Shown piece by piece: positions 1-63,965 of a stretch of DNA of 64,000 bases. Position 1 is the stretch's first letter. Every line of letters begins with the position of its first letter. Under the pieces are notes generated by a model that worked only from the letters and a program-made list of their open reading frames with translations, ran no database searches and was not told where the DNA came from. The position numbers and the translations under genes are program-made. This stretch comes from an uncultured Planctomycetia bacterium (GTDB lineage Bacteria > Omnitrophota > Gorgyraeia > VGKN01): positions 5,618 to 69,617 of the forward strand of contig CAZDNS010000001.1 of NCBI GenBank assembly GCA_964506845.1, read 5' to 3'.

Positions 1-675
1 TTTACCGGTGAGGCAATATCAAGGCTCGATATGGATGACAGGTTTACAATGTGTAATATGGCAATAGAGGCAGGCGCTAAAAACGGTATTATAGCTCCGG
101 ATAAAAAAACAATTGAATATGCAAAAACCAGGCCCGCTAAAAGAAAATACAGGATTTATTCCTCTGATAAGGATGCGAGATTTTCTTTGATAAAGGAGTT
201 TAACCTTTCAAAACTCCAGCCGCAGGTGTCAGAGCCGCCGCTTCCGAGCAATACCAGGCCTGTGGGAGAATTAAATAAGGTAAGGATTGACCAGGCGGTA
301 ATAGGCTCCTGCACAAACGGAAGGATATCGGATTTAAGGATTGCGGCGCAGATTTTAAAAGGAAAAAAGGCGCATAAGGATGTCAGGGTAATTGTAATTC
401 CTGCTACGCAGAACATATACCTTCAGGCGATAAAGGAAGGATTGATTAATATATTTATTGAATCAGGTTGTGTGGTCTCAACTCCGACCTGCGGTCCTTG
501 TTTAGGCGGCCATATGGGTATATTGGCAGAGGGAGAATCCGCCATATCCACTACCAACAGGAATTTTGTAGGCAGAATGGGGAGTGTAAAAAGCAGGGTG
601 TATCTCGCAAGCCCTGCGGTTGCAGCCGCTTCAGCGATAAAGGGTAGAATTACGCATCCAGAAGAGGTTAAATGA
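1..675 (+). CDS. leuC: 3-isopropylmalate dehydratase large subunit, C-terminal part (gene continues upstream of the window)
   Basis: Frame is open from base 1. Aconitase-family C-terminal motifs ([25 protein letters not shown]). Followed by leuD with a 4-bp overlap. Confidence 0.8.
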
Positions 676-2495: not shown

Positions 2496-3637
2496 AAAAA
2501 TCAAAGTATAACGTAGCAGTAGTTGGTGTAGGTGCAGTAGGGATAGAGATGCTCCGCTGTTTAAGACAGCGCAATTTCCCTGTAGGTGAACTCCGCATTT
2601 TTGCCCGCTCAGAACGGATTATTGAGGTGGACGGCGAAAACTACGCGGTTAAAAGCATATCGCCTGACGGATTTAACAACATAGACATAGCGCTATTTGC
2701 CGGAACTGAGGGTGAGAAGGGAGCGGCAGTAACCTATGCTAAAGAAGTGATAAAAAGGGGTGCAGTGGTTATAGACAACGGCGCGGATTTCAGGATGGAC
2801 CCGGATGTGCCTTTAGTTGTACCAGAAGTAAACGCCAAGGATTTGGATCTCATTAGAAATTGGTTACTTGGAAAAAAACACAGGCCAGAAGGCCGTGGTT
2901 TGGCTTCCAATAGCCAAAGCCACAGGCCAGAAGGCCGTGGTTTGGCTTCCAATAGCCAAAGCCATAAGGGCATAATAGCAAATCCAAACTGCTCCACCAT
3001 TCAAATGGTGGTGGCATTATGGCCTATATATAAAAAGGTCGGTATTAAGAGAATAATTGTAACCACCCTGCAGGCGGCCTCCGGCGCAGGAAGGCAGGCA
3101 GTGGAGCAGTTAAGAAGAGAGTTGATGGAGTTAGGTAAAACAGAGTATCAGAGAATCGGGGTATCAGAAAATCAGGAAAGGGCTTTGCCGCAGCAACTTG
3201 CCCTTAACGTCTTTCCGCATATAGGAAGTTTTACTGAATGTAATTATACCAATGAGGAATGGAAACTGGTAAAGGAAACCCATAAGATTATGCACGCTTA
3301 TAAAATCAAAATCTCGGCAACCACTGTAAGGGTGCCTGTAAGAACAGGCCATTCGGAATCAGTCTATATCGAAACTGAAAAACCGATTGAGCCTGAAAAG
3401 GTAAAGCAGGTTCTCTCAAAGGCTTCCGGAATAATCGTGGTTGACGATATAAAGAATAATCTCTATCCGATGCCGAAGGACACAGAGGGAAAAGATGAGG
3501 TTTTTGTGGGAAGGATACGCAAGGACCCCTTCATTAAAAATGGCCTGTGGCTGTGGATAGTGTCGGATAATCTGAGAAAGGGCGCGGCCCTTAATGCGGT
3601 TCAGATTGCGGAATATTTAATCGGCTTAAAGAAATGA
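2492..3637 (+). CDS. asd: aspartate-semialdehyde dehydrogenase carrying a 28-aa in-frame repeat insertion
   Basis: VGVGAVG N-terminal NAD motif and IANPNCSTI active-site region. 381 aa instead of ~340 because of a duplicated 14-aa insert HRPEGRGLASNSQS x2. Confidence 0.85.
   Translation: MKKSKYNVAVVGVGAVGIEMLRCLRQRNFPVGELRIFARSERIIEVDGENYAVKSISPDGFNNIDIALFAGTEGEKGAAVTYAKEVIKRGAVVIDNGADFRMDPDVPLVVPEVNAKDLDLIRNWLLGKKHRPEGRGLASNSQSHRPEGRGLASNSQSHKGIIANPNCSTIQMVVALWPIYKKVGIKRIIVTTLQAASGAGRQAVEQLRRELMELGKTEYQRIGVSENQERALPQQLALNVFPHIGSFTECNYTNEEWKLVKETHKIMHAYKIKISATTVRVPVRTGHSESVYIETEKPIEPEKVKQVLSKASGIIVVDDIKNNLYPMPKDTEGKDEVFVGRIRKDPFIKNGLWLWIVSDNLRKGAALNAVQIAEYLIGLKK
2879..2962 (+). repeat. perfect 42-bp x2 tandem duplication, internally palindromic, in frame inside asd
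   Basis: Unit cacaggccagaaggccgtggtttggcttccaatagccaaagc at 2879-2920 is repeated exactly at 2921-2962. It contains GGCCagaaGGCC and TTGGCT..AGCCAA arms. Confidence 0.9.
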
Positions 3638-5199
3638 GTCCTGATAAAAAAAGACAGAGCTGGGCATCCCGGCTTGGCATAATACTGGCAGTTGCAGGAA
3701 GCGCAGTAGGGCTTGGAAATTTCCTGAGGTTTCCTGTGCAGGCGGCCTCAAACGGCGGCGGCGCCTTTATGATACCCTATTTCATATCCCTGCTTCTGCT
3801 CGGCATACCGCTTATGTGGATAGAATGGACAATAGGCCGTTTTGGAGGAGGTTTTGGCCACGGGACTGCGCCGGGGATATTCCATTCCCTATGGGAGAAA
3901 AACAGGTTCATCAAATATTTCGGAGTAATTGGAATATTCGGGCCATTAGTCATTTTTATATACTATACCTATATAGAATCCTGGACGCTTGGATACAGTT
4001 TTTTTGCGCTTTTGGGGAAATACGAGGGGATAAAGACCCAGGCGGGTATGCAGAGTTTCCTGAGCGCCTATCAGGGCTTGGAGAAAAACCAGTTTTTTAA
4101 CAGTATTCTGCCTGCATATATCTTCTTTTTGATAACCTTTATATCGAATATTGTAGTGGTATATTTTGGCGTATCAGGAGGGACTGAAAGGCTATGTAAA
4201 ATTGCGATGCCTGTCCTGCTAATAGCGGGAATTATTATGGCTATAAGGGTCCTGACCTTGGGTATCCCTGATTTGTCAAGGCCTGACTGGAATTTGGTAA
4301 ACGGCCTGGGGTTTTTATGGAACCCGGATTTTTCGGTCCTAAAAAGCGCAAGAGTATGGCTTGCTGCATCCGGCCAGATATTTTTTACATTGAGTGTGGG
4401 AATAGGCGTGATTTTAACCTATGCCAGTTACTTAAAAAAGGCGGATGATGTGGCGCTCTCGGGGCTGACTGCCGTAAGCACAAATGAATTTGCCGAGGTA
4501 ATCTTGGGAGGAAGCATAGTAATCCCTGCCGCATACGTATTTTTTGGCCCGGTTGAGATAGCAAATATCGCAAAGGGCGGCGCCTTCAACTTAGGTTTTG
4601 TAACGATGCCTTTAGTCTTACAGCAAATAAACTTCAGCGCCTTTTTTGGCTTTGTATGGTTTTTGCTTTTGTTTCTGGCAGGCGTTACCTCCAGCGTCTC
4701 TTTGATGGAACCTGCTATCGCATTTATGGAGGATGAGTTCGATATTGGCAGAAAAAAAGCGGTTATCATATTTGCAGGAATTTCCTTTATCCTGTGCCAG
4801 CCTGCGATATTCCTTTTAAAACACGGGGTGGTAAACGAGCTGGATTTCTGGGGAGGGACATTCTGCCTGGTTCTGTTCGGGACAGTCGAGGTTATATTAT
4901 TTGCCTGGGTATTCGGAATGGAGAATGCCTGGACGGAAATACACCACGGCGCGGATATAAGGATACCGGATATTTATAAATTCATCATAAAATACATAAC
5001 CCCGCTATTTTTATTCCTTATACTCGGATTCTGGTTTATTCAAGAAGGAATTCCCACCATATTTATGAAGAACGTTGCGGCCGCTGATAAACCCTTTGTC
5101 TTAGGAACAAGGATAGGGCTTTTCATTATCCTTTTGATATTTGCAATAATGGTTAAAATCGCCTGGCGTAAAAAGAGAATTAACCCCGTTAGAGAATAA
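3634..5199 (+). CDS. sodium-dependent transporter, neurotransmitter:sodium symporter (SNF) family
   Basis: 521 aa, multi-TM. N-terminal motif RLGIILAVAGSAVGLGNFLRFP is typical of NSS family. Confidence 0.8.
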   Translation: MSPDKKRQSWASRLGIILAVAGSAVGLGNFLRFPVQAASNGGGAFMIPYFISLLLLGIPLMWIEWTIGRFGGGFGHGTAPGIFHSLWEKNRFIKYFGVIGIFGPLVIFIYYTYIESWTLGYSFFALLGKYEGIKTQAGMQSFLSAYQGLEKNQFFNSILPAYIFFLITFISNIVVVYFGVSGGTERLCKIAMPVLLIAGIIMAIRVLTLGIPDLSRPDWNLVNGLGFLWNPDFSVLKSARVWLAASGQIFFTLSVGIGVILTYASYLKKADDVALSGLTAVSTNEFAEVILGGSIVIPAAYVFFGPVEIANIAKGGAFNLGFVTMPLVLQQINFSAFFGFVWFLLLFLAGVTSSVSLMEPAIAFMEDEFDIGRKKAVIIFAGISFILCQPAIFLLKHGVVNELDFWGGTFCLVLFGTVEVILFAWVFGMENAWTEIHHGADIRIPDIYKFIIKYITPLFLFLILGFWFIQEGIPTIFMKNVAAADKPFVLGTRIGLFIILLIFAIMVKIAWRKKRINPVRE

Positions 5200-8096: not shown

Positions 8097-9122
8097 TTGA
8101 TTAAATGTGCGGTTGTGGGCGCAACAGGCTATGCGGGAGAAGTTCTATTAGAACTTTTATTAAAACACCCTAAGGTAAAACTGACCAGCCTTTATGCCAA
8201 GGTAGATTCTGCTCAACCAATATATAATTTTTTCCCCAAGTTTTATGGACGGCTTAATCTATTATGTAAGCCTTTGGAAATAAAAGAGTTAAATAAAAAC
8301 TCTGATTTTATCTTTCTGGCTTTACCCCATAAGGTGTCAATGGAGATTGTTCCGCATATATTACAAAAGGGGAAACGGATAATAGACTTAAGCGCTGACT
8401 ACAGGCTCACGGATTTAGCGATTTATAAAAAATATTATGGGGTAGCTCATCAGGATAATGGAAACATTAAAAAGGCAGTTTATGGTATTCCGGAACTGTA
8501 TAGAAAGAAAATAAAAACCGCTACACTAATAGCAAATCCGGGGTGTTATCCTACAGCCGCAATTTTAGGACTTGCGCCGTTATTTGCTAAAAAGAACCTG
8601 ATAGATATTAACTCCGTCATAATAGACGCAAAATCCGGCTTTACCGGCGCAGGCAGAAATCCAATTGCTCATTTTATATTCTCCGAGGTAAACGAGGCTA
8701 TTAAACCGTATAAGGTTAATGTCCATCAGCATTCTCCTGAAATAGAGCAACAACTCGGCCTTATCGCAGGTGAAAAAATAAGGGTAACATTTGTTCCGCA
8801 CCTTATTCCTATTGACAGGGGAATAATCAGCACGATCTATATAAGGTTAAAGAAGTTAGCAGGCATAGAAGAATTGTTTAGACTATATGAAAATTTCTAC
8901 AAGGGTGAAAAATTTGTAAGAATACTTCAAAGCGGTAAATTCCCTAATTCAAAGGATGTATTAGGAACCAATTTCTGCGACATTGCGCTAAGCCTGGATA
9001 TAGAAAAAAAACAGCTAATAGTAATAAGCGCTATTGATAACCTTATGAAAGGCGCAGCAGGACAGGCCCTTCAGAATATGAATATAATGTGCGGTTTTGA
9101 CGAAACCATTGCTCTAAAGTAA
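8097..9122 (+). CDS. argC: N-acetyl-gamma-glutamyl-phosphate reductase
   Basis: AVVGATGYAGEVL N-terminus. Likely TTG start at 8097 after AAGGAG. The track ORF begins at 8055. Confidence 0.85.
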   Translation: MIKCAVVGATGYAGEVLLELLLKHPKVKLTSLYAKVDSAQPIYNFFPKFYGRLNLLCKPLEIKELNKNSDFIFLALPHKVSMEIVPHILQKGKRIIDLSADYRLTDLAIYKKYYGVAHQDNGNIKKAVYGIPELYRKKIKTATLIANPGCYPTAAILGLAPLFAKKNLIDINSVIIDAKSGFTGAGRNPIAHFIFSEVNEAIKPYKVNVHQHSPEIEQQLGLIAGEKIRVTFVPHLIPIDRGIISTIYIRLKKLAGIEELFRLYENFYKGEKFVRILQSGKFPNSKDVLGTNFCDIALSLDIEKKQLIVISAIDNLMKGAAGQALQNMNIMCGFDETIALK

Positions 9123-45989: not shown

Positions 45990-46150
45990 GGATTAGTGGA
46001 GTCCCTCGGCCTATCCCTCGCAACTTGGCTCGGGATGGTGAGCGAAGTCGAACCAAAGGCCGAGGCTCCCTCCCGAGCAGAAAGAACAATATGGCATTCA
46101 TCCCTCGGGCTAAAGCCTGTGGATTCCTGCGAGGGATTGATAATTTTTTA
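45990..46150. other. GC-rich region with long-range complementary segments ending in a T-run (candidate small RNA)
   Basis: TCCCTCGCA(46010)/TGCGAGGGA(46128), CCTCGGCC/GGCCGAGG, GCTCGGGA/TCCCGAGC, then TTGATAATTTTTTAA. The overlapping ORFs 45863..46168(+) and 45784..46101(-) are low-complexity. Confidence 0.25.
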
Positions 46151-46233
46151 ACCCACAGAGCCGTATAAAGTTAAGATAATATAAAAGACTCTTGACATAT
46201 AAACGCGCAAATATTAAAATAAAGCAAAAAAAG

Positions 46234-46402
46234 GGTAACCGCAAAAGCGCAGAATAACCACCAAAGCGCAAAATATCCCTGCCTGTCGCCTGCCTGACGG
46301 TAGTCAGGGCAGGCGCAAAGAAAGACTTCTGCGTTTCGGCGTTTACTAATTTCGCTATTTAGCGGTTACAAATTTTGCGTTTCAGCGGTTGCAAAAAAGG
46401 AG
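46234..46402 (+). promoter_or_regulatory. conserved upstream cassette, copy B (with palindromic insert CCTGCCTGACGGTAGTCAGGGCAGG)
   Basis: Collinear with copies A, C and D. Followed by hairpin GTGCT..AGCAC, then GAAGGAGG and the ATG at 46440. Confidence 0.6.
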
Positions 46403-46439
46403 TGCTTTGACTACGCTCAGCACTTCGAAGGAGGTAAAA

Positions 46440-46823
46440 ATGGATAATGTATATACAGGCGAAGAAAAAAGACAGTTCTACAGGGTTAACTATGAAAAAG
46501 AACTTAATTTTGACAAATTTATTGGCTCAAGCGTGTCTGGTACCAACTCAGGGATAAGCAAAAATATAAGCCAGTCAGGGATATTAATCCAGACAGATAA
46601 CCCGCCATCTATATCAAACTTATTATGGATAAGCCTTGATTTAAGGACACTCAATATCTGCCAGGAAATAGAGCAGAATGCCCTGATTATCAAAAACGGA
46701 GTAGTTGGAAAGGTTGTCAGGCTTGAAGAATCTAAAACTGCTGAAGGAAGCTACGATGTAGGTGTGTGTTTTCTTAAAAAAGGCTCATCCATGGAAGAAA
46801 AACTGGCAAAAGCGCTTGTTTAA
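46440..46823 (+). CDS. PilZ-domain protein
   Basis: KRQFYR (RxxxR) and NISQSG motifs. Start at ATG 46440 after GAAGGAGG. Confidence 0.6.
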   Translation: MDNVYTGEEKRQFYRVNYEKELNFDKFIGSSVSGTNSGISKNISQSGILIQTDNPPSISNLLWISLDLRTLNICQEIEQNALIIKNGVVGKVVRLEESKTAEGSYDVGVCFLKKGSSMEEKLAKALV

Positions 46824-46830
46824 GCATTTC

Positions 46831-46986
46831 CAATGCTAATAGTCGGTTTTATTATTCTAATAGTAACGTTCGTTGCAGTTATTTTTAGCATAGACCCCAC
46901 CATAAAAGAATGTCAGCACTGTAAAAGCCAAATCCGCTTAAAAGAGCTTTTCACGCACAAAAACTCCTGCCCTGAATGTAACAAAT
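46831..46986 (+). CDS. small membrane protein with zinc ribbon (not in ORF track, <60 aa)
   Basis: 51 aa, MLIVGFIILIVTFVAVIF TM helix then CQHC...CPEC. 8 bp after the PilZ stop. Confidence 0.35.
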
Positions 46987-47357
46987 AGGCTAAATATTAA
47001 TTTTTAATCAAAATCAATGACTTCTATTGGATATTCTATTAACGTCCTATAATATATCTTATGTTAACTATAATCACACAATAAATTTTATGTAAGTTAT
47101 TGTAATTAAAGAAGATATGTTAAAAAATGCGCAAGCTGTTAATATATGGCAGGAATTACTTTCTAGTTCTTATCTCAACAGGTAAATAACCACTATCTAA
47201 TTGGGGAAGTCTTACCCCATTTATTGAGACTATGTTCACATCATTTGCTGTAACCGCATTGGCCGATATGGGGTGAAAAATACCCTTAATCAGATTAAAA
47301 AAAAGGCCAATTGCTATCAGGGTTAAAATTACCTTTGAATAGGTATCCAGTTCAATT

Positions 47358-47894
47358 TTACTCTTCATAGAGATATCTCCTCCTTTTTTTGGCAATTTCT
47401 CTTATTCTGGTTCTATCAAACAACCTATCTATATCGAACTTGTTATATATCCTGAATAATAAAAAATAGGTAAAGGGCGATGCAGTTTTATTATTTATGA
47501 GGTCTAAAAGTAAATGGTGAGAATATCCGATACTTATTCCCAATACTACCATATTTTTGCTAAAAAATAACAGCCATAACCATAATGCTAAAACTATCTC
47601 AAAAGAGTGTAGGAATAAATAAACCTTATCAAAATTAACCTCAAAAAAAAGGCGCATTACTTTCCTGGGTTTCAACTTATAACAACCATACCTAAAATAC
47701 TCAAAAAGATGGTCTATGTCTATAAATACGCCACAAACAAGGTTAGAGATAGATATGGAAAGACAGTTAAAATAATTTAGCAGTAAAAGGCTAAATCCAC
47801 CTGAAATTACCAGATGATGTAATGGCCCTATGGGAAAAATCTCCTTAAGATTTATCCGCCTTCGCACTTGCCTGCCGCAGACAGGGAAAGCCAC
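47358..47894 (-). CDS. polytopic membrane protein (possibly DUF457/YdjM-like metal-dependent hydrolase)
   Basis: 178 aa, 4-5 TM helices, conserved His/Asp cluster (IDIDHLFEY, HHLLLD). Confidence 0.35.
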   Translation of the reverse strand: MAFPVCGRQVRRRINLKEIFPIGPLHHLVISGGFSLLLLNYFNCLSISISNLVCGVFIDIDHLFEYFRYGCYKLKPRKVMRLFFEVNFDKVYLFLHSFEIVLALWLWLLFFSKNMVVLGISIGYSHHLLLDLINNKTASPFTYFLLFRIYNKFDIDRLFDRTRIREIAKKRRRYLYEE

Positions 47895-48050
47895 ACCTGT
47901 CCTTCGACGAGCTCAGTATGGTGAGCCCTTCGACTCCGCTCAGGGCAGTGAGCCTGTCGAACTGCATGGTCGAACCATAAAGGTGTGGATGTCCGCCACG
48001 AATCTTGGCGGATGCTTCGGCGGGTTTCGCCCGATATGTTCATATGGGGC
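47895..48050. repeat. GC-rich intergenic segment with ~28-bp imperfect tandem units and hairpins
   Basis: CCTTCGACGAGCTCAGTATGGTGAGCC / CTTCGACTCCGCTCAGGGCAGTGAGCC / TGTCGAAC, CCGCCACGAATCTTGGCGG. Confidence 0.4.
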
Positions 48051-48051
48051 T

Positions 48052-48354
48052 TCACTTCTTGGCAGGAATCTCGATGCCCCCTGCATTCATTTTCTCAAAA
48101 ACAGGGCAACTTTTTACAAGGTTACATCTTTTTAATTCAAAACAGGCCTTTTTTGCTCCTATATAGAGAAGTCCTCCAAGACTACAAACTATTATGACAA
48201 TGGAGACAAAAACGCCAAGTTTTTTTGCTGCCCCCTTCTCTTTTATAGCCGTGATAAATACCTTATACCCCAGCGCAAGGGTAAGTAAATACAGCGCCCA
48301 GTTTATACCTGTGAATTTGCCATGATGCCAGAAAAAACCTTTTAAATCCTCCAT
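48052..48354 (-). CDS. small membrane protein, hypothetical
   Basis: 100 aa, two TM helices. Start at 48354 with AAGGAGG RBS, directly preceded by cassette copy C. Confidence 0.35.
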   Translation of the reverse strand: MEDLKGFFWHHGKFTGINWALYLLTLALGYKVFITAIKEKGAAKKLGVFVSIVIIVCSLGGLLYIGAKKACFELKRCNLVKSCPVFEKMNAGGIEIPAKK

Positions 48355-48503
48355 ATCCCCTCCTTTTTTGCAACCGCTGAAACGCCTGTCTGCCGACAGG
48401 CAGACAAAATTTGTAACCGCTAAATAGCAAAATTAGTAAACGCCAAAACGCAGAAGTCTTTCTTTACGCCTCTGCCGATATTTTGCGCTTTGGCGGTTAC
48501 CCC
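48355..48503 (-). promoter_or_regulatory. conserved upstream cassette, copy C (contains GTCTGCCTGTCGGCAGACAGG insert)
   Basis: Reverse complement aligns with copies A, B and D. 20-nt palindrome at 48385-48406. Confidence 0.6.
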
Positions 48504-48694
48504 TTTTGTTTGGTTAATTACATACAAAAAAGGCTGCGAGACTTTGGGTTCGCTCAAACTTGTGACAGCCGGGTCACCTTTTTAAATTTCCTTAGCGCTC
48601 AATAGTCTCACAGCCAGCTAAACTCTACCATATCGAACAGATTTTGTCAATAGCAGTATTTAAAATTTAAGAAACGAGAAATATTTATAATTAA

Positions 48695-48887: not shown

Positions 48888-49961
48888 TCAGACGTCAATG
48901 AGCTCATACTCTGAGTTTCCTATTCCAAGCTCCTGGGAATATTTTAGTTGAACAGTATAATCAATCTCAGGAAACATTTCTTTAAAAAGGTCTTTCCCTG
49001 AGGTACTATTTACTATATCAATGGAGGCACGGTCAATTGCAACCGGGTCTAAGGAAGCAAGAATTCCAATATCCTCAAATAGAGGCTCAGTTTCCTTTGA
49101 CATGCAATCGCATTCCTTAGTAAAGTGGGTAATGAAGTTTATACACGCCAATTTAAGATTTCTGGTTTTTAAAACGCCGTATACATATTCAGCCATTTTT
49201 TCCTGAATCTGGCTGGAGGTGGTTGACCATGAAATTTCGATGGCGCCGGTCCTGCATAAAACTGTGCAATTGCCACAACCTATGCATAGGTTTTTTGAAA
49301 TTAATGCTTTATTTTCATTTGTCATAACTATTGCATTCACAGGACATCTGTTTATACATATTAAACAACCTGTGCACTTTTTAGGCCTTACAGTAGGCAG
49401 GACATTTGAATGCTGATTAAGCTTGCCTGCTCGCGAGGCAAGCCCCATCCCAATATTCTTCAGAACCCCCGCATATCCTGTCAGTATATGGCCGGTTACG
49501 TGAGAAAGTGCGATGATGCAATCAACATCCTTTAAAAAAGAAGCCAGTCTTAACTTTTTGAAATATTTTAGGTCAACTTCCAGTTCCAATTGGTCATAAC
49601 CCATAAGCCCGTCTCCGATTATTAACGGCGCGCCCAGTTCTTTTGGATTAAAACCGTGCGAAACAGCCAGATTCAGATGATCCACGGCATTTGACCGCTG
49701 GCCCTTATACAATGTGTTAGTCTCTACGATAAATGGTTTTGCGTTTCTTTTCTTTATAAGCCCAACCGCCTCTTTAACCAATAGCGGATTTATGTAGCCC
49801 TTATTATTCTCCTCGCCAAATGTAAGTTTTATCCCTACAAAATCGTCTTTGCTTATTAAATCGGCTAATTTTGAGGCGCTTAAAACCGTTTTTAAGACCT
49901 CGGTTGGTTCCTTATGGGAAGTCTTGTTATTAAATCTCTTTAAATAAACCTTACTTTTCAT
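48888..49961 (-). CDS. DUF362-domain protein with embedded 2x[4Fe-4S] ferredoxin domain
   Basis: CTGCLICINRCP and CIGCGNCTVLC clusters within a 357-aa DUF362-like protein. Confidence 0.65.
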   Translation of the reverse strand: MKSKVYLKRFNNKTSHKEPTEVLKTVLSASKLADLISKDDFVGIKLTFGEENNKGYINPLLVKEAVGLIKKRNAKPFIVETNTLYKGQRSNAVDHLNLAVSHGFNPKELGAPLIIGDGLMGYDQLELEVDLKYFKKLRLASFLKDVDCIIALSHVTGHILTGYAGVLKNIGMGLASRAGKLNQHSNVLPTVRPKKCTGCLICINRCPVNAIVMTNENKALISKNLCIGCGNCTVLCRTGAIEISWSTTSSQIQEKMAEYVYGVLKTRNLKLACINFITHFTKECDCMSKETEPLFEDIGILASLDPVAIDRASIDIVNSTSGKDLFKEMFPEIDYTVQLKYSQELGIGNSEYELIDV

Positions 49962-51000
49962 CTTTATCTAAAATATCGCGCATCCATTGTGGTTCCATAC
50001 AAAGTACTATCTTAGCCATTTTATCAATTCTTCGTATCAGGGATTTTATCCTTTTGTACACCCTCAGGCGTATGTCTCTGAAATACCTGAATTTTCCATC
50101 ACTGCATCGGATAAATTCGTCTTCAAGTATTTTTATACCCTTAAATCGTGTCTGGATAACCTCCTTCAATTCTTTTGTATACCTGAAACATCCTAAAGAA
50201 TACATTATTCCATTTTCTTGACCTATAAAGTTATATATATAATTTATGAGGCTTTCATATTCTTCTTTCCACTCAGAAAGGTGAAAGATCGGATCAAGCC
50301 GCAGACCTATTTTTACGCCGGAGCCTTTTACCCTTTTAATGGCAGAGAGCCTTTCTTCAAGGGTTGGGGTTTTAAATTCAAGGCGCCTTATAAAATAAGC
50401 AGGGTTTATAGTCCAGAAGACAGAGATATTATCTTTTCTAAAAGAACCCTTTGGCAGAAATTCTGTCTCTGAGCTTTTTGTTCTGAGTTCCAGTTTCGAG
50501 TTCTCATTAGAAAAAAAATTTATTAGAAATTCCGTATAGCCGTTTAAACCTTCCAGCGCAAGGCTATCGCTTAGCTCGCCTGTCGTAAAGATACATCTTT
50601 TAAGATCGGCCTGTTTTTTTAAGGAGAGGAATTCGTCTTTAAATTTATTTAGGTTTACGTAAATGGTTATTACATGATGACTCAGATAGGACTGAAGATA
50701 GCAATAGGCGCAGTCAAATATGCAACCACTTATCAGGTCAATCCTATATTCTCCGGAATTTGTTACATCTTTATTATCAACGAATCTCTTAATAAAATTT
50801 CCTTTCTGTTTTGTTAAAAAGAGTATCCTTTTTGAACTCCCTATATGCATATTTAGGCCGGCGCCATCAGTATGTATCTCTTCTATATCATTTACCAGAT
50901 TTATGGATTTTGGATTTAGTTTTTCAAGGATTAAAGCCGTCTGTTTAAGATTTTTTACACCTCCATCAACATACACCTCTTTGAAATACGGGTTATACAT
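49951..51000 (-). CDS. radical SAM enzyme, spore-photoproduct-lyase (SplB)-like
   Basis: CIFDCAYCYLQ (CxxxCxxC followed by Y..LQ, as in SplB). N-terminal MYNPYFKEVYV resembles the SplB start. 349 aa. Confidence 0.65.
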   Translation of the reverse strand: MYNPYFKEVYVDGGVKNLKQTALILEKLNPKSINLVNDIEEIHTDGAGLNMHIGSSKRILFLTKQKGNFIKRFVDNKDVTNSGEYRIDLISGCIFDCAYCYLQSYLSHHVITIYVNLNKFKDEFLSLKKQADLKRCIFTTGELSDSLALEGLNGYTEFLINFFSNENSKLELRTKSSETEFLPKGSFRKDNISVFWTINPAYFIRRLEFKTPTLEERLSAIKRVKGSGVKIGLRLDPIFHLSEWKEEYESLINYIYNFIGQENGIMYSLGCFRYTKELKEVIQTRFKGIKILEDEFIRCSDGKFRYFRDIRLRVYKRIKSLIRRIDKMAKIVLCMEPQWMRDILDKDEK

Positions 51001-51001
51001 T

Positions 51002-51979
51002 TTAATTTAATAATTTAAATAAATCCATAAAAAATGCTTCTTTCTTTTTTAGCATATTCATAAGACTGTTCAATTCATAATATGAAGCGGGTTTAAGTAA
51101 AATATTGACAAAATTCCCTTCGAAATTCTCCGGTGCAGTTATACGCAGTTTATTATCGATGTTCATAGGTTCGGCTATTTTTAAAAATTTTCTGCTCTTT
51201 GCCATAAGCATCGGATACCTGAGTGTCCTTAAAATATTTAATAAAGCGATGGTTTTTTGCCTTGAATTTAATTCTTTAGAAAAAAGGGCATCTTTAATTA
51301 TTTTTTTATTAAAAATTTCTTTGTAGGTTTTAGCGCACCTTTGAGTTACAAACCTTAGGTTCTCCATAATTTCTTTAAATTCATTCAGGTTTGGCCTGCA
51401 GTTTAGCAATACCTTATTATATATATTGAGCCTTTCGCTGCTGGTTAGCCTCGCTAAAATCAATAACTGTCCAAGGCTTACTTTAGCCTGGAGAAAACTC
51501 TCTTTTATACCATCTTCAAGTTCGGCAATCTTAAGATAATTATCAATAACCTCCCTAGATTTAGGTAAGCCTAAAAGCGGGGAAATGAGCTCTGACAGTG
51601 CCTCTTCTTCGATTAAAAAATGTACGCTTAATTTTTTTAAGGTCTCGGCTTTATCAAGGTCATTTAAACTATTTACAGAATGATTATCGTTCAACGCCAG
51701 GAGAATGCAGTCCATATCTTCTGTTTCGCTACCGAGCACAAAGGCCTCTATCGATTTCTTCCTTAAGAGTTTAAATGTGAGCACTCTTCTAAAACCAGAT
51801 ACAATATGAAGGGTCTTTCTCTGCCTTAAGACCACGGGGTTTATCAGTCCCACTTGCTCTATTAAGCCTGATAAATTTCCTGCCTCCACTCTGTGTCTAA
51901 ACAAAAATGTTGAGTCTTTAGAGTCTATATCGTTAAGGGGGATTTTTACCGGCGCGTGGTCTGGTATTAAGATTCCCAT
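51002..51979 (-). CDS. ParB/Srx-fold N-terminal domain protein with long helical C-terminal region
   Basis: LINPVVLRQRKTLHIVSGFRRVLTFKLL (ParB-like GxRR motif). 325 aa. Confidence 0.5.
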   Translation of the reverse strand: MGILIPDHAPVKIPLNDIDSKDSTFLFRHRVEAGNLSGLIEQVGLINPVVLRQRKTLHIVSGFRRVLTFKLLRKKSIEAFVLGSETEDMDCILLALNDNHSVNSLNDLDKAETLKKLSVHFLIEEEALSELISPLLGLPKSREVIDNYLKIAELEDGIKESFLQAKVSLGQLLILARLTSSERLNIYNKVLLNCRPNLNEFKEIMENLRFVTQRCAKTYKEIFNKKIIKDALFSKELNSRQKTIALLNILRTLRYPMLMAKSRKFLKIAEPMNIDNKLRITAPENFEGNFVNILLKPASYYELNSLMNMLKKKEAFFMDLFKLLN

Positions 51980-52539
51980 CTTATCAGATTTTTACAGTTA
52001 TCGCAAAAACTGGATTCCTTGGTGTCTGTATCAGCCAGGCTATTTGAAAACGCCATTACGCATTTTAAATCTTTGCAATGGTTAAGCCCTAAAATATGCC
52101 CTAACTCATGCACGGCTTCCTTTAATGTCCTTTCGAGAAATATATTTTTATCGGATTTTGAAATGTAAAACTCGGGCCTGAGTCTGTATAGAGATACAAC
52201 ACAAATCCTGCTGTATAGGTCCGCTTGCCCAAAGATAAAGTTGAGTCCCTCGCAATAAAGGTCAATGTCGCTTATTGCAAGTAATATATCCTTCTCGGAG
52301 GTCTTTCTTTCAGCAAGTCTTTCAAGTAAAATACTTGCGTTAAATTGATTCCTGAGAGGATTGAATGCGGCATATGGAACTTCCGCATCTTTAGTTATTT
52401 CTATATGCCTTCCAAATTTTATCTCTAGAGAATTTTTCAAATAAGATAAAACCCTTTCTTCTATGTTTCCAAAAGGTGTTAGGTAAATTACCCTTTCTGG
52501 TTTTTTATCGTTCATTTCTGGGTGATGTATGGAACACAA
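51967..52539 (-). CDS. archaemetzincin-family zinc metalloprotease
   Basis: HELGHILGLNHCKDLKCVMAFSNSLADTDTKESSFCDNC matches HExxHxxGxxHCx4CxMx17CxxC. 190 aa. Confidence 0.75.
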   Translation of the reverse strand: MCSIHHPEMNDKKPERVIYLTPFGNIEERVLSYLKNSLEIKFGRHIEITKDAEVPYAAFNPLRNQFNASILLERLAERKTSEKDILLAISDIDLYCEGLNFIFGQADLYSRICVVSLYRLRPEFYISKSDKNIFLERTLKEAVHELGHILGLNHCKDLKCVMAFSNSLADTDTKESSFCDNCKNLIRWES

Positions 52540-52559
52540 GACTATATATGAAACAATCA

Positions 52560-52600
52560 GATATATAATACCTTATTTGGATTTGATTTTCAAGTGGGGT
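52560..52600 (-). promoter_or_regulatory. putative sigma70-like promoter for the 4-gene operon
   Basis: On the minus strand: TTGAAA, 17 nt, TATTAT, about 30 nt upstream of the archaemetzincin start. Confidence 0.3.
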
Positions 52601-52614
52601 TAAAATATAAGAAT

Positions 52615-54648
52615 CTATACTGCGGATTCAATCGGAGGGACAAAAAGAGAGGTATTTTTTCTTTCTTTTGAAATCTGTTCTTTCTTAATCAAATCAATCA
52701 ATATCCTTGTAATCTCAGGATCAAACTGGCTTCCTGAATTTCTTTCTAACTCCAGCAGGGCTTCTTCTACAGTCAGGCTTTTCCTATAAGGCCTATCGCT
52801 GGTCATAGCATCAAAGGAATCCGCAACTGATATAATCCTGTCAAAGAGTGGTATATCATCTTTTTTAAGCCCACCGGGATAACCCTGTCCGTCAAACCTT
52901 TCATGGTGGTGCTTTATAAGCGAGATATAGGGTGAAAAAAAGTCTATTTGAGATAAAAGTTCTGCTCCCTTAACAGGATGTAATTCAATCTCTGCACGTT
53001 CCTTTATCGACAAGGTATCGGGTTTATTCAATATTGCATCGGATATGGCTAATTTTCCTATATCGTGTATCCTGCCCAAGTGCCGTAATATCTCTATGTG
53101 CTCATCGTGGAGTTTCATCTTTCTGGCGATCAGGACTGCCAGCTTTGACACCCTCTCAGAATGACCGCGCGAATAAGGATCTTTTGCTTCAATTGCCAAT
53201 ATTAAGGTATTTATCATATTCAGGTAATCCACATGGATTTTATTATGGAGCTTGGCGTTATTTATGGCTATTGCCGCCTGAGTTGCGAATGTAGATAAGA
53301 GCCTTATCTCTTCCTCCTTAAATCTTCGCTTTGTGAGGTTGTAGGTAATTATAACCCCGAGCAATTCGTTTTTAAACTGTATTGGAACACCCAGAACTGA
53401 CCTGAAGCCTTCTTTGCAAAGCAAATCCGAATACTTAACCCTTTCATCCCTTTCTGTATTATATATATTTATCGGTTCCTTCAACTTTGCTATAAGCCCG
53501 GCAACTCCTTCTCCTATAACCTGCGGTGTCCTTTCAAGGTATTTTTTTGTTATGCCGAACGAGGCGCTCGGGATAAGTTTATTTGTCTGAGAATCGAATA
53601 ACCTGAGGGTACAGGCATGCGTATCTATTATAACGCAGGTCATTTTTGCTATCATATCCAGGACTTCCTGCAGATTGAGCGTGGAGATAATGCCCTTACT
53701 TACCTCAAATATGGTCATAAGTTCTTTGTTTGCCAAACGGAGCTCTCTTGTGCGTCTTTCAACCCTTCTTTCGAGGTTTAAATTCAGACTTTTTATCTTT
53801 TTCCAGGTTGATTTTAACTCTCTGGTCCTCAAAATCAATTCCCTGTTAGCAGACTGTAGCTGGGTGTTTGAATTTTTCAGGGCATTTTCATTGGCCTTTA
53901 GTTTGCTAATATCCTGTGATACACCCACCAAGGCTATCGTCTTTCCGCTGGCGTCTTTTACGGTAGAAGTAATCAGATGTACTATAAATTCTTCTGCCGA
54001 TTTTTTTACATTCAGAACCTCTCCCTCCCATCCCCCTTTTAGCGTGGCGTCAAATATCTTTTTTGATAAACCCTGCGGGTTGTTTTTTGAGTGCATTACA
54101 GAAACATTTTGTCCTATTAATTCTCTCGCCTCATAACCAAAGATCTTTTCTGTCTGGGGGTTTACGTATAGAATACTTCCTGACAGGTTGGTTATTGTAA
54201 CCATCTCTCTCATAGAATTAACTGCGCAGGCCATCTTCTTCAATTCCTCTTCAAGATTTAACTTCTCGGTTATATCCTGCGTTAACTCTAATACAAGTGT
54301 TATGTCTCCCTTATCATCTTTTATCGGGGTGGTGGTAAGAAGGTAGGAACGCTCTTCATCGGAAATTGTAATCCCTGACTGTATCGCCTGTTCTACCTTA
54401 CCACTCTTAAACGATTTATATGTAGGGCATCCTTCGCATATTCTTTTTTTCTTCTGGTAAGTACTATAACAGTGGGAGCCTTTAATCTTTTCTAACGGAC
54501 CAAACCACCTTTCCAACTCTTCATTTACCCACACAATCCGCATATCTCTGTCTACCAGAGATATGCCCGCGCCTATGTTGTTCAACAATGTCAGGGTTAT
54601 GTCCCTTGACAATTCAAAGGGATTATGGTTTTGCGCTACTTTTTTCAT
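52615..54648 (-). CDS. PAS/GAF-containing HD-GYP c-di-GMP phosphodiesterase
   Basis: HD..HHERFDGQGYPGGL HD-GYP signature at the C-terminus. Two PAS-like modules, coiled coil and GAF-like region N-terminally. 677 aa. Confidence 0.8.
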   Translation of the reverse strand: MKKVAQNHNPFELSRDITLTLLNNIGAGISLVDRDMRIVWVNEELERWFGPLEKIKGSHCYSTYQKKKRICEGCPTYKSFKSGKVEQAIQSGITISDEERSYLLTTTPIKDDKGDITLVLELTQDITEKLNLEEELKKMACAVNSMREMVTITNLSGSILYVNPQTEKIFGYEARELIGQNVSVMHSKNNPQGLSKKIFDATLKGGWEGEVLNVKKSAEEFIVHLITSTVKDASGKTIALVGVSQDISKLKANENALKNSNTQLQSANRELILRTRELKSTWKKIKSLNLNLERRVERRTRELRLANKELMTIFEVSKGIISTLNLQEVLDMIAKMTCVIIDTHACTLRLFDSQTNKLIPSASFGITKKYLERTPQVIGEGVAGLIAKLKEPINIYNTERDERVKYSDLLCKEGFRSVLGVPIQFKNELLGVIITYNLTKRRFKEEEIRLLSTFATQAAIAINNAKLHNKIHVDYLNMINTLILAIEAKDPYSRGHSERVSKLAVLIARKMKLHDEHIEILRHLGRIHDIGKLAISDAILNKPDTLSIKERAEIELHPVKGAELLSQIDFFSPYISLIKHHHERFDGQGYPGGLKKDDIPLFDRIISVADSFDAMTSDRPYRKSLTVEEALLELERNSGSQFDPEITRILIDLIKKEQISKERKNTSLFVPPIESAV

Positions 54649-63778: not shown

Positions 63779-63794
63779 CTTCGTAATTCATTTG

Positions 63795-63965
63795 AGGGAT
63801 CGGGGTGTTTTCTATATGTCTCCCGAGCCCTCATCCTGAGGAGCGAAGCGACGAAGGATCTCATAGATCCTTCAGCCCTTCAGGCTTCCCCGGCCCGCTC
63901 CGCTTTGCCGGGGCGGGCAGGATGAGCCCCGAGACAAAAAATTCCCCGAGGGCTCATTCATTTAA
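63795..63965. repeat. GC-rich ~100-nt structured repeat, copy 2
   Basis: Near-identical to 48728-48830 (CTCATCCTGAGGAG..GAAGGATCTCATAGATCCTTC..GCCGGGGCGGGCAGGATGAG). Confidence 0.5.

Follow-up and report, generated by a model that had tools for sequence, protein, structure and literature searches.

A Spore Photoproduct Lyase-Fold Radical SAM Enzyme and a ParB-Family Partner Form a Conserved Gene Pair in Omnitrophota and Other Bacterial Lineages

Introduction

A cluster of four minus-strand genes lies in the 64,000-nucleotide stretch of DNA analyzed here (hereafter the window; contig CAZDNS010000001.1 of assembly GCA_964506845.1, positions 5,618 to 69,617 of the forward strand), which comes from an uncultured bacterium of the Omnitrophota lineage. 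Two of these genes, encoding a radical S-adenosylmethionine (SAM) enzyme with the fold of spore photoproduct lyase (SPL) and a partner of the ParB family, constitute the conserved unit, and the arrangement found in the window is a lineage-specific build around this pair. The conserved pairing of two such proteins appears to be unprecedented. A first-pass annotation, made from the sequence alone, had regarded the combination of ParB-like and SPL-like proteins as undescribed, and no published account of it was found in the literature. Direct repair of DNA is known for no radical SAM enzyme other than SPL. The roles known for ParB-family CTPases are in partition, nucleoid occlusion, and transcription, and partnership with a redox enzyme is not among them.

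With relatives in at least 510 species, the pair provides a testable handle on the roles of SPL relatives in non-spore-forming bacteria and on the wider use of ParB. If the partner does deliver the radical enzyme to DNA, the ParB switch would have acquired a new use, and the pair might constitute a pathway of DNA repair or modification that is both new and independent of oxygen. If the substrate is not DNA, the SPL and ParB folds would have been recruited jointly for a different chemistry. The window's specific four-gene arrangement is itself ordinary and has little general significance.

The Conserved Unit Is a Gene Pair

Conservation of the genes was surveyed in the neighborhoods of 85 loci encoding homologs of the radical SAM enzyme, which were gathered by iterated hidden Markov model searches of six-frame open reading frames (ORFs), with the ORFs called mechanically. 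Relatives of the enzyme are encoded in at least 510 species genomes, nearly all of which are metagenome-assembled genomes (MAGs), and the survey took from these the 80 genome loci with the greatest similarity to the query, again mostly from MAGs. The hosts belong to the Thermodesulfobacteriota, Acidobacteriota, Binatia, Omnitrophota, Aminicenantes, Nitrospinota, KSB1, and Calditrichia, which are overwhelmingly non-spore-forming and largely anaerobic lineages, and among named relatives the closest is a Candidatus Omnitrophota MAG. Upstream partners were counted in the 75 loci that possess at least 1 kb of upstream sequence, and the search for partners covered the adjoining sequence of each locus.

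A ParB-like gene lies directly upstream of the radical SAM gene, on the same strand, in 57 of these 75 loci, and 61 of the 75 possess one anywhere upstream. The pairing spans Thermodesulfobacteriota, Acidobacteriota, Binatia, Omnitrophota, and Aminicenantes, among others. In a reverse look-up, an SPL-like gene was found downstream of the ParB-like gene in all three family members that occur on long contigs. Together, the co-occurrence counts and the reverse look-up therefore identify the two-gene pair as the conserved unit.

The first-pass annotation had treated all four genes as one system and had proposed a co-occurrence check; when the check was run, only the ParB-like/radical SAM pair was found to be kept. 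An archaemetzincin neighbor occurs in 0 of the 85 homologous loci. A gene for a DUF362-ferredoxin protein adjoins or overlaps the radical SAM gene in the closest Omnitrophota relatives (loci L001, L002, L003, and L086), and this contact is seen in genomes ranging from 52% to 86% identity. No DUF362-ferredoxin was found next to the radical SAM gene in the remaining 81 loci, and DUF362 relatives at 32–48% identity were found to have no radical SAM gene alongside. The DUF362-ferredoxin gene is an add-on specific to one narrow Omnitrophota clade, and the archaemetzincin gene is a recent bystander outside the conserved module.

Two of these relatives, L001 (65% identity) and L002 (52%), keep full synteny with the window, with genes for DHQ (dehydroquinate) synthase, an acetyltransferase, a SPOR protein, and two small proteins, followed by the ParB-like, radical SAM, and DUF362 genes. 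The flanks of the pair in these genomes are conserved housekeeping synteny, with no island. Ahead of its ParB-like gene, the window has two genes that both relatives lack, one for the archaemetzincin and one for a PAS-GAF-HD-GYP protein. Relative to them, positions 51967..54648 of the window are a two-gene insertion that separates the conserved small genes from the ParB-like gene and encodes a PAS-PAS-GAF-HD-GYP protein (of the cyclic di-GMP phosphodiesterase type) and the M54 archaemetzincin. Several genes encoding PilZ domains occur close to this insertion. The sole relative with an M54-like sequence upstream is L086, which is 86% identical and in which all four genes are represented. Its M54 homolog (positions 35..579 of the locus) is split over two reading frames, covering residues 9–114 and 75–190, and this sequence, from a short Logan contig, is either a decaying pseudogene or the product of an assembly error.

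The Radical SAM Enzyme

The 349-residue radical SAM enzyme matches PF20903 at 101.9 bits (cutoff, 27), and its family profile retrieves the solved SPL structures with E = 1e-46. An AlphaFold2 (AF2) model of the protein, with a predicted local distance difference test score (pLDDT) of 80.6 and a predicted template-modeling score (pTM) of 0.83, was compared with known structures by Foldseek. It superimposes on SPL structures 4FHC and 4K9R over its full length (~346 columns) with template-modeling (TM) scores of 0.82–0.85, and the next-best fold reaches 0.46.

Functional residues were defined from the SPL structure paper (PMC3467042). As the first-pass annotation had observed, the cluster motif is that of SPL: C93-x3-C97-x2-C100 (SPL C90/C94/C97) is invariant in 85 of 85 family members, as are Y99, K175, and R273 (SPL Y96, K174, and R273). 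At position 197, which corresponds to S195 of SPL, 89% of the family have Ser, and the window protein has Thr. In SPL, R273 has been proposed to contact the phosphate of the lesion, and a hairpin bearing R304 and Y305 has been linked to base flipping (PMC3467042). An invariant DGKxRY motif (residues 301–306) occurs in a predicted beta-hairpin at about the place of this SPL hairpin.

The match to SPL does not extend to the catalytic cysteine. The H-atom donor of SPL is Cys140 in Bacillus-type enzymes and Cys77 in Clostridium-type enzymes (PMC3467042). The position of the former is Glu in 85 of 85 family members (Glu142 in the window protein), and that of the latter is Phe (F73) in the window protein. 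The position of SPL Y98 is not conserved across the family, with Tyr being found in the window protein. Moreover, the enzyme scores 116.8 bits against the SPL equivalog TIGR04070, for which the cutoff is 400, and typical family members score 110–129 bits. Since an invariant Glu replaces the catalytic cysteine, the protein is, judging from its sequence, an SPL-fold enzyme that retains SAM- and cluster-binding residues and not a true spore photoproduct lyase.

Most members of the family carry up to four extra Cys residues. In 75 of the 85, a "KPCPG...CC" signature is present whose first Cys lies no more than one residue from the Clostridium-type donor position, and this signature, together with a conserved C-terminal Cys, could supply the ligands of an auxiliary cluster. 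The extra Cys residues are absent, with no consistent substitute, from the window protein and ten others, including every radical SAM enzyme that is linked to DUF362.

Compared with SplB (PDB 4FHC/4FHD), then, the family shares the full-length fold, the CxxxCxxC motif, the SAM-contacting residues (with S195 as Ser or Thr), and the position of the C-terminal hairpin. It differs in the Glu at the donor position and the unconserved Y98 position, in scores far below the equivalog cutoff, in its non-spore-forming hosts, and in the extra Cys of most members, which SPL is without. Furthermore, it is encoded with a ParB-like partner and often with a family-2 glycosyltransferase (GT2), whereas splB is not. 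Other SPL-related radical SAM proteins of non-spore-formers are the SplB-like proteins of COG1533, including the Rv2578c and PA0069 families, and such genes are LexA-regulated in several phyla, which links them to DNA damage by way of the SOS response (PMC4951493, PMC8565304). The window enzyme differs from these families as well, scoring 16.8 bits against NF038135 and 13.6 bits against NF033668 (cutoffs, 430 and 360, respectively), and a ParB-like partner is not reported for them. No curated NCBIfam model covers the radical SAM or the partner family, and none was matched above its cutoff.

The ParB-Like Partner

The partner encoded in the window is a long form of 325 residues. It comprises a ParB N-domain with a GxRR motif (G62 F63 R64 R65), a helix-turn-helix (HTH) at residues ~104–191, and a novel C-terminal domain at ~192–325 that bears RYP and FEG motifs. 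Its HTH_ParB score of 27.9 bits lies above the Pfam gathering score, and nearly all of the listed members of the partner family carry a precomputed Pfam annotation of PF02195. Among 44 long-form sequences, the nucleotide-site motifs are well kept, with G62 in 43, R65 in 44, E or D at position 98 in 40, and N99 in 37, and the partner's sequence matches those of CTP-binding ParB and Noc structures.

These features, the GxRR and E/D-N motifs of the N-domain followed by a ParB-type HTH, are shared with the chromosomal ParB/Spo0J/Noc CTPase clamps (PDB 4UMK, 6SDK, and 7NG0). The differences are equally clear. Against parB_part, the partner scores 44.5 bits, below the cutoff of 58.45 (typical members, 44.5–47.6), and about a third of the family is without the ParB N-domain. 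The canonical C-terminal dimerization domain is replaced by the novel domain of ~135 residues, which is the best-conserved part of the partner and the only one common to all members; no solved structural relative of this domain was found. Finally, the partner is paired with a radical SAM gene and occurs outside any parA or partition context. The Walker A motif of ParA, KGGxGK[ST], was found in no frame of the 64-kb window, in agreement with the first-pass annotation, and no ParA was found among the called genes of related loci. The ParB-like/radical SAM locus is not a partition locus.

Genes Associated with the Pair

The commonest third gene, as identified by unbiased clustering of neighboring ORFs, encodes a GT2 of ~280 residues and occurs upstream of the partner in 30 of the 85 loci. 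It is a generic member of its family, with no equivalog match. In L011, the GT2 gene abuts the radical SAM gene directly and the partner is absent, and in L054 it accompanies the partner, 3 kb from the radical SAM gene. No GT2 copy was found within the 64-kb window, and none in the Omnitrophota clade or in most of the loci.

Additional proteins have been noted in particular lineages. In the three loci of Thermodesulfobacteriota type (L089, L090, and L091), a Rho_N (SAP-like) protein of 113–125 residues is encoded immediately upstream of the GT2-partner-radical SAM array in 3 of 3, with a GH57 gene further upstream in two of them, and a small ORF similar to the Rho_N protein recurs in 10 of the 85 loci. 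In a 2.1-Mb Fusobacterium vincentii record that is filed as a plasmid (NZ_CP084075.1), positions 3122..4993 of locus L092 encode a protein of 623 residues with an SPL-family radical SAM domain as its C-terminal half. The N-terminal ~300–380 residues match nothing in Pfam, and neither a ParB-like nor a GT2 gene is a neighbor. This protein is another uncharacterized SPL-like architecture, in this case from a culturable organism.

Within the window, the two outer genes encode ordinary members of the archaemetzincin (M54) and DUF362/LarA-clan families, and their co-occurrence with the conserved pair is limited to this narrow lineage. The DUF362 protein scores 130.2 bits against PF04015 (cutoff, 24) and contains two 4Fe-4S motifs, in Fer4 stretches at residues 190–211 and 220–241; DUF362 belongs to the same Pfam clan as the N-domain of LarA (PMC11770544). 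It is a plausible electron-transfer partner of the radical SAM enzyme. ORFs with ferredoxin motifs lie near 3 of the 10 radical SAM genes whose products are without the extra Cys triad, versus 0 of the 75 whose products possess it. Another ferredoxin-containing neighbor was observed in L004 (8448..9692, minus strand), where a PfkB-family kinase fused to two 4Fe-4S ferredoxin domains adjoins a Cys-less SPL-like enzyme and a RibD-like deaminase/reductase is encoded directly 3′ of the radical SAM gene.

The M54 protein scores 188.9 bits against NF033823 (cutoff, 145). Its zinc motif, HELGHILGLNHCKDLKCVM-x16-CDNC, follows the pattern HExxHxxGxxHCx4CxM...CxxC that the first-pass annotation had recognized, with a final spacer of 16 residues, not the 17 given there.

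Possible Functions of the Pair

The explanation preferred here, tentatively and with somewhat less than even confidence, is that the pair comprises a DNA-directed radical enzyme and a ParB-type partner. The retained SPL architecture, the ParB motifs, and the LexA regulation of other SplB-like subfamilies give indirect support for action on DNA. In the mechanism that we infer, the enzyme would reductively cleave SAM, and the 5′-deoxyadenosyl radical would abstract hydrogen from a base that the conserved, Arg-Tyr-tipped hairpin has flipped out of the DNA. The substrate would be a lesion or modification of a pyrimidine, distinct from the classical spore photoproduct, and the invariant Glu would act where SPL uses Cys140. 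The ParB-like protein would dock onto the enzyme by means of its conserved C-terminal domain, and long-form partners could also target or load the enzyme on DNA through the HTH and a CTP-type nucleotide switch. In the clade represented by the window, the DUF362-ferredoxin may pass electrons to or from the enzyme.

Several observations weigh against this explanation. In 14 of the 75 loci with sufficient upstream sequence, the radical SAM gene has no nearby partner, and these loci include that of Desulfurivibrio dismutans, the sole cultured isolate in the sample. About 30% of the partners are short forms (~180–205 residues) without the ParB N-domain and probably without the HTH, and therefore DNA targeting cannot be the partner's universal role. 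The window partner itself has a divergent N-domain, for which the ParB_N score of 16.4 bits is below the gathering score and AF2 pLDDT is <50, and its R103 position is Asn. A shared palindromic site near the loci was looked for and none was found, and a comparison of protein charge was uninformative on nucleic-acid binding. The equivalence of the DGKxRY motif and the SPL hairpin is one of position and secondary structure, with no residue-level superposition, and the enrichment of ferredoxins comes from only about two independent lineages. Finally, a glycoconjugate or small-molecule pathway would explain the GT2 link at least equally well.

This last point leads to the foremost rival, which is possible though doubtful: the substrate is not a nucleic acid, and the GT2, the helical partner protein, and the radical SAM enzyme build or tailor a glycoconjugate, sugar nucleotide, or other small molecule. 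The C-terminal domain of the partner would then be a scaffold or carrier, and its ParB/Srx-fold N-domain, in those partners that have one, would be a nucleoside triphosphate-binding enzymatic or regulatory module. Such a pathway would be in keeping with the GT2-partner-radical SAM order in 29–30 of the 85 loci and with the arrangements in L011 and L054, as well as with short partners that lack the N-domain and HTH, the Glu in place of the catalytic Cys of SPL, the housekeeping-like (not repair-related) flanking genes, and those loci where the radical SAM gene stands alone. On the other hand, DNA is the substrate of the only characterized relative that shares this fold, and the family retains the full fold, R273, and the hairpin. 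Two thirds of the partners keep the ParB nucleotide and HTH motifs under clear selection, and GT2 is missing from the window, from the Omnitrophota clade, and from most loci. Nor would the presence of GT2 exclude DNA as the substrate, as GT-A-fold enzymes also glycosylate DNA bases.

The DNA-directed explanation can be extended into a more specific scenario, which is speculative and, taken as a whole, unlikely. Here, a radical SAM enzyme would have gained a ParB-type CTP-switch protein as its DNA-loading subunit, and the two would scan DNA independently of oxygen, to repair a lesion characteristic of anoxic life or else to introduce a base modification. Lineages with GT2 would then glycosylate the modification, in an anaerobic analog of the hypermodification of thymine by a hydroxylase and a glycosyltransferase, and the second electron-transfer center required for such chemistry would be supplied by the extra Cys set in most members and by the separate DUF362-ferredoxin in the clade of the window.

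It is a shade less probable again that the ParB-like protein regulates transcription of the downstream radical SAM gene in the manner of KorB and is no functional partner of the enzyme. ParB-family CTPases can act as repressors, the protein has a ParB-type HTH, and its gene is always upstream and on the same strand. However, the part that is best conserved, and alone universal, is the novel C-terminal domain and not the HTH, and the short forms are without an HTH altogether. No recurrent palindrome was found near the loci, and tight start/stop coupling and equal gene dosage are more typical of subunits than of regulators.

A single DNA repair or modification system, or an anti-phage system, of which the metalloprotease and DUF362 protein are integral parts, is very improbable. 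The tight packing of the four genes on one strand, with two overlapping junctions, and their joint occurrence in the 86%-identical L086 would be consistent with such a system. The co-occurrence counts largely refute it, however: none of the 85 loci has M54 as a neighbor, the syntenic L001 and L002 have no copy of it, the L086 copy is divided between two frames, and DUF362 is limited to one narrow clade. A defense-related activity, which the first-pass annotation had entertained, fared no better. A search of PADLOC-DB gave no match for three of the proteins and, for the fourth, a weak ferredoxin-region match to BrxP (E = 0.03), so nothing significant. No relatives of the radical SAM subfamily were found on viral contigs, and plasmid and phage records yielded only distant matches at 24–31% identity, mostly to true splB. 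The flanks, moreover, are of the housekeeping kind, with no island. There is no support for the four-gene cluster as a known defense system.

Least probable of all is that the enzyme acts as a true spore photoproduct lyase, repairing 5-thyminyl-5,6-dihydrothymine after ultraviolet irradiation or desiccation: SPL is the closest fold and sequence family, the window protein keeps Tyr at the Y98 position, and most members, the window protein excepted, have a Cys at or next to the Clostridium-type donor position, but a score of 117 bits against a 400-bit equivalog cutoff, Glu for Cys140 in 85 of 85 members, F73 at the Clostridium-type position of the window protein, and hosts that are overwhelmingly non-spore-forming and largely anaerobic, in which spore photoproduct is not expected as a major lesion, all speak against it.

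Gene Layout and Other Features of the Window

The four ORFs match exactly the coordinates given in the first-pass annotation (Table 1), and its four family assignments hold by the NF033823, HTH_ParB, PF20903, and PF04015 scores. The genes had been described as overlapping at their boundaries, which is true of two junctions, with an overlap of 13 nucleotides (nt) between the M54 and ParB-like genes and one of 11 nt between the radical SAM and DUF362 genes; the ParB-like and radical SAM genes are separated by a 1-nt gap. The start of the M54 gene is more likely the in-frame ATG at 52515 than the TTG at 52539, because the NCBIfam model begins at residue 18.

Table 1. Coordinates of the four genes and adjacent elements in the window.
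Feature	Coordinates	Strand	Length or basis
M54 archaemetzincin-type zinc metalloprotease	51967..52539	-	190 residues from TTG; 182 residues from the likelier ATG at 52515
ParB-family partner (core component 1)	51002..51979	-	325 residues
SPL-fold radical SAM enzyme (core component 2)	49951..51000	-	349 residues
DUF362 protein with inserted 2x[4Fe-4S] ferredoxin domain	48888..49961	-	357 residues
Promoter-like site TTGAAA-17-TATTAT, upstream of the M54 gene	52565..52593	-	Consensus scan, 10/12 matches
GC-rich structured dispersed repeat, just 3′ of the DUF362 stop codon	48735..48860	-	Exact 30-mer and RNA fold

Two elements flanking the cluster had been interpreted as its own promoter and terminator. 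The promoter-like site does exist, although such sites are barely commoner in the window than in shuffled sequence (27 versus 18.1 ± 4.9, a marginal excess), and it is therefore weak evidence for a promoter. The GC-rich, terminator-like sequence proved to be something else. An exact 30-mer of this sequence occurs twice in the window, with 0 occurrences expected by chance, and a second copy, near-identical over ~125 nt, lies at ~63790..63930 on the minus strand. The predicted RNA fold of the repeat has an energy of -60.3 kcal/mol (z = -3.9). Both copies lie downstream of genes, in a window that is otherwise ~40% GC. The ~125-nt element is a dispersed repeat resembling repetitive extragenic palindromic (REP) sequences or miniature inverted-repeat transposable elements (MITEs) and not a dedicated terminator of the operon.

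Further downstream, on the minus strand at 48527..48650, a hairpin of ~90 nt with a U-tract comes after a TG-extended promoter-like site (TTGACA-17-TAGAGT), and both precede the gene for a predicted membrane protein of 100 residues (48354..48052). Counterparts of the hairpin occur in L086 (~3700–3830) and L001 (~8130–8270), where the DNA is almost identical and the proteins are only 65–86% identical, and the outer stem displays apparent compensatory changes (GAGAC/GUCUC versus GAAAC/GUUUC). The hairpin has no match in Rfam. It is a candidate for a conserved small RNA or riboswitch-like leader of the Omnitrophota. Between the hairpin with its U-tract and the 100-residue ORF, the window possesses ~150 additional bases (48360..48530, minus strand) that are missing in L086, L001, and L002, and this extra segment holds more hairpin-like sequence, for example GTCTGCCTGTCGGCAGACAGG.

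Finally, GC skew, AT skew, and gene orientation all switch sign at ~46000..48000, with plus-strand genes to the left and minus-strand genes to the right in a convergent arrangement. This switch could mark a replication terminus or could merely reflect coding-strand bias, and the convergent gene arrangement is retained in L001.

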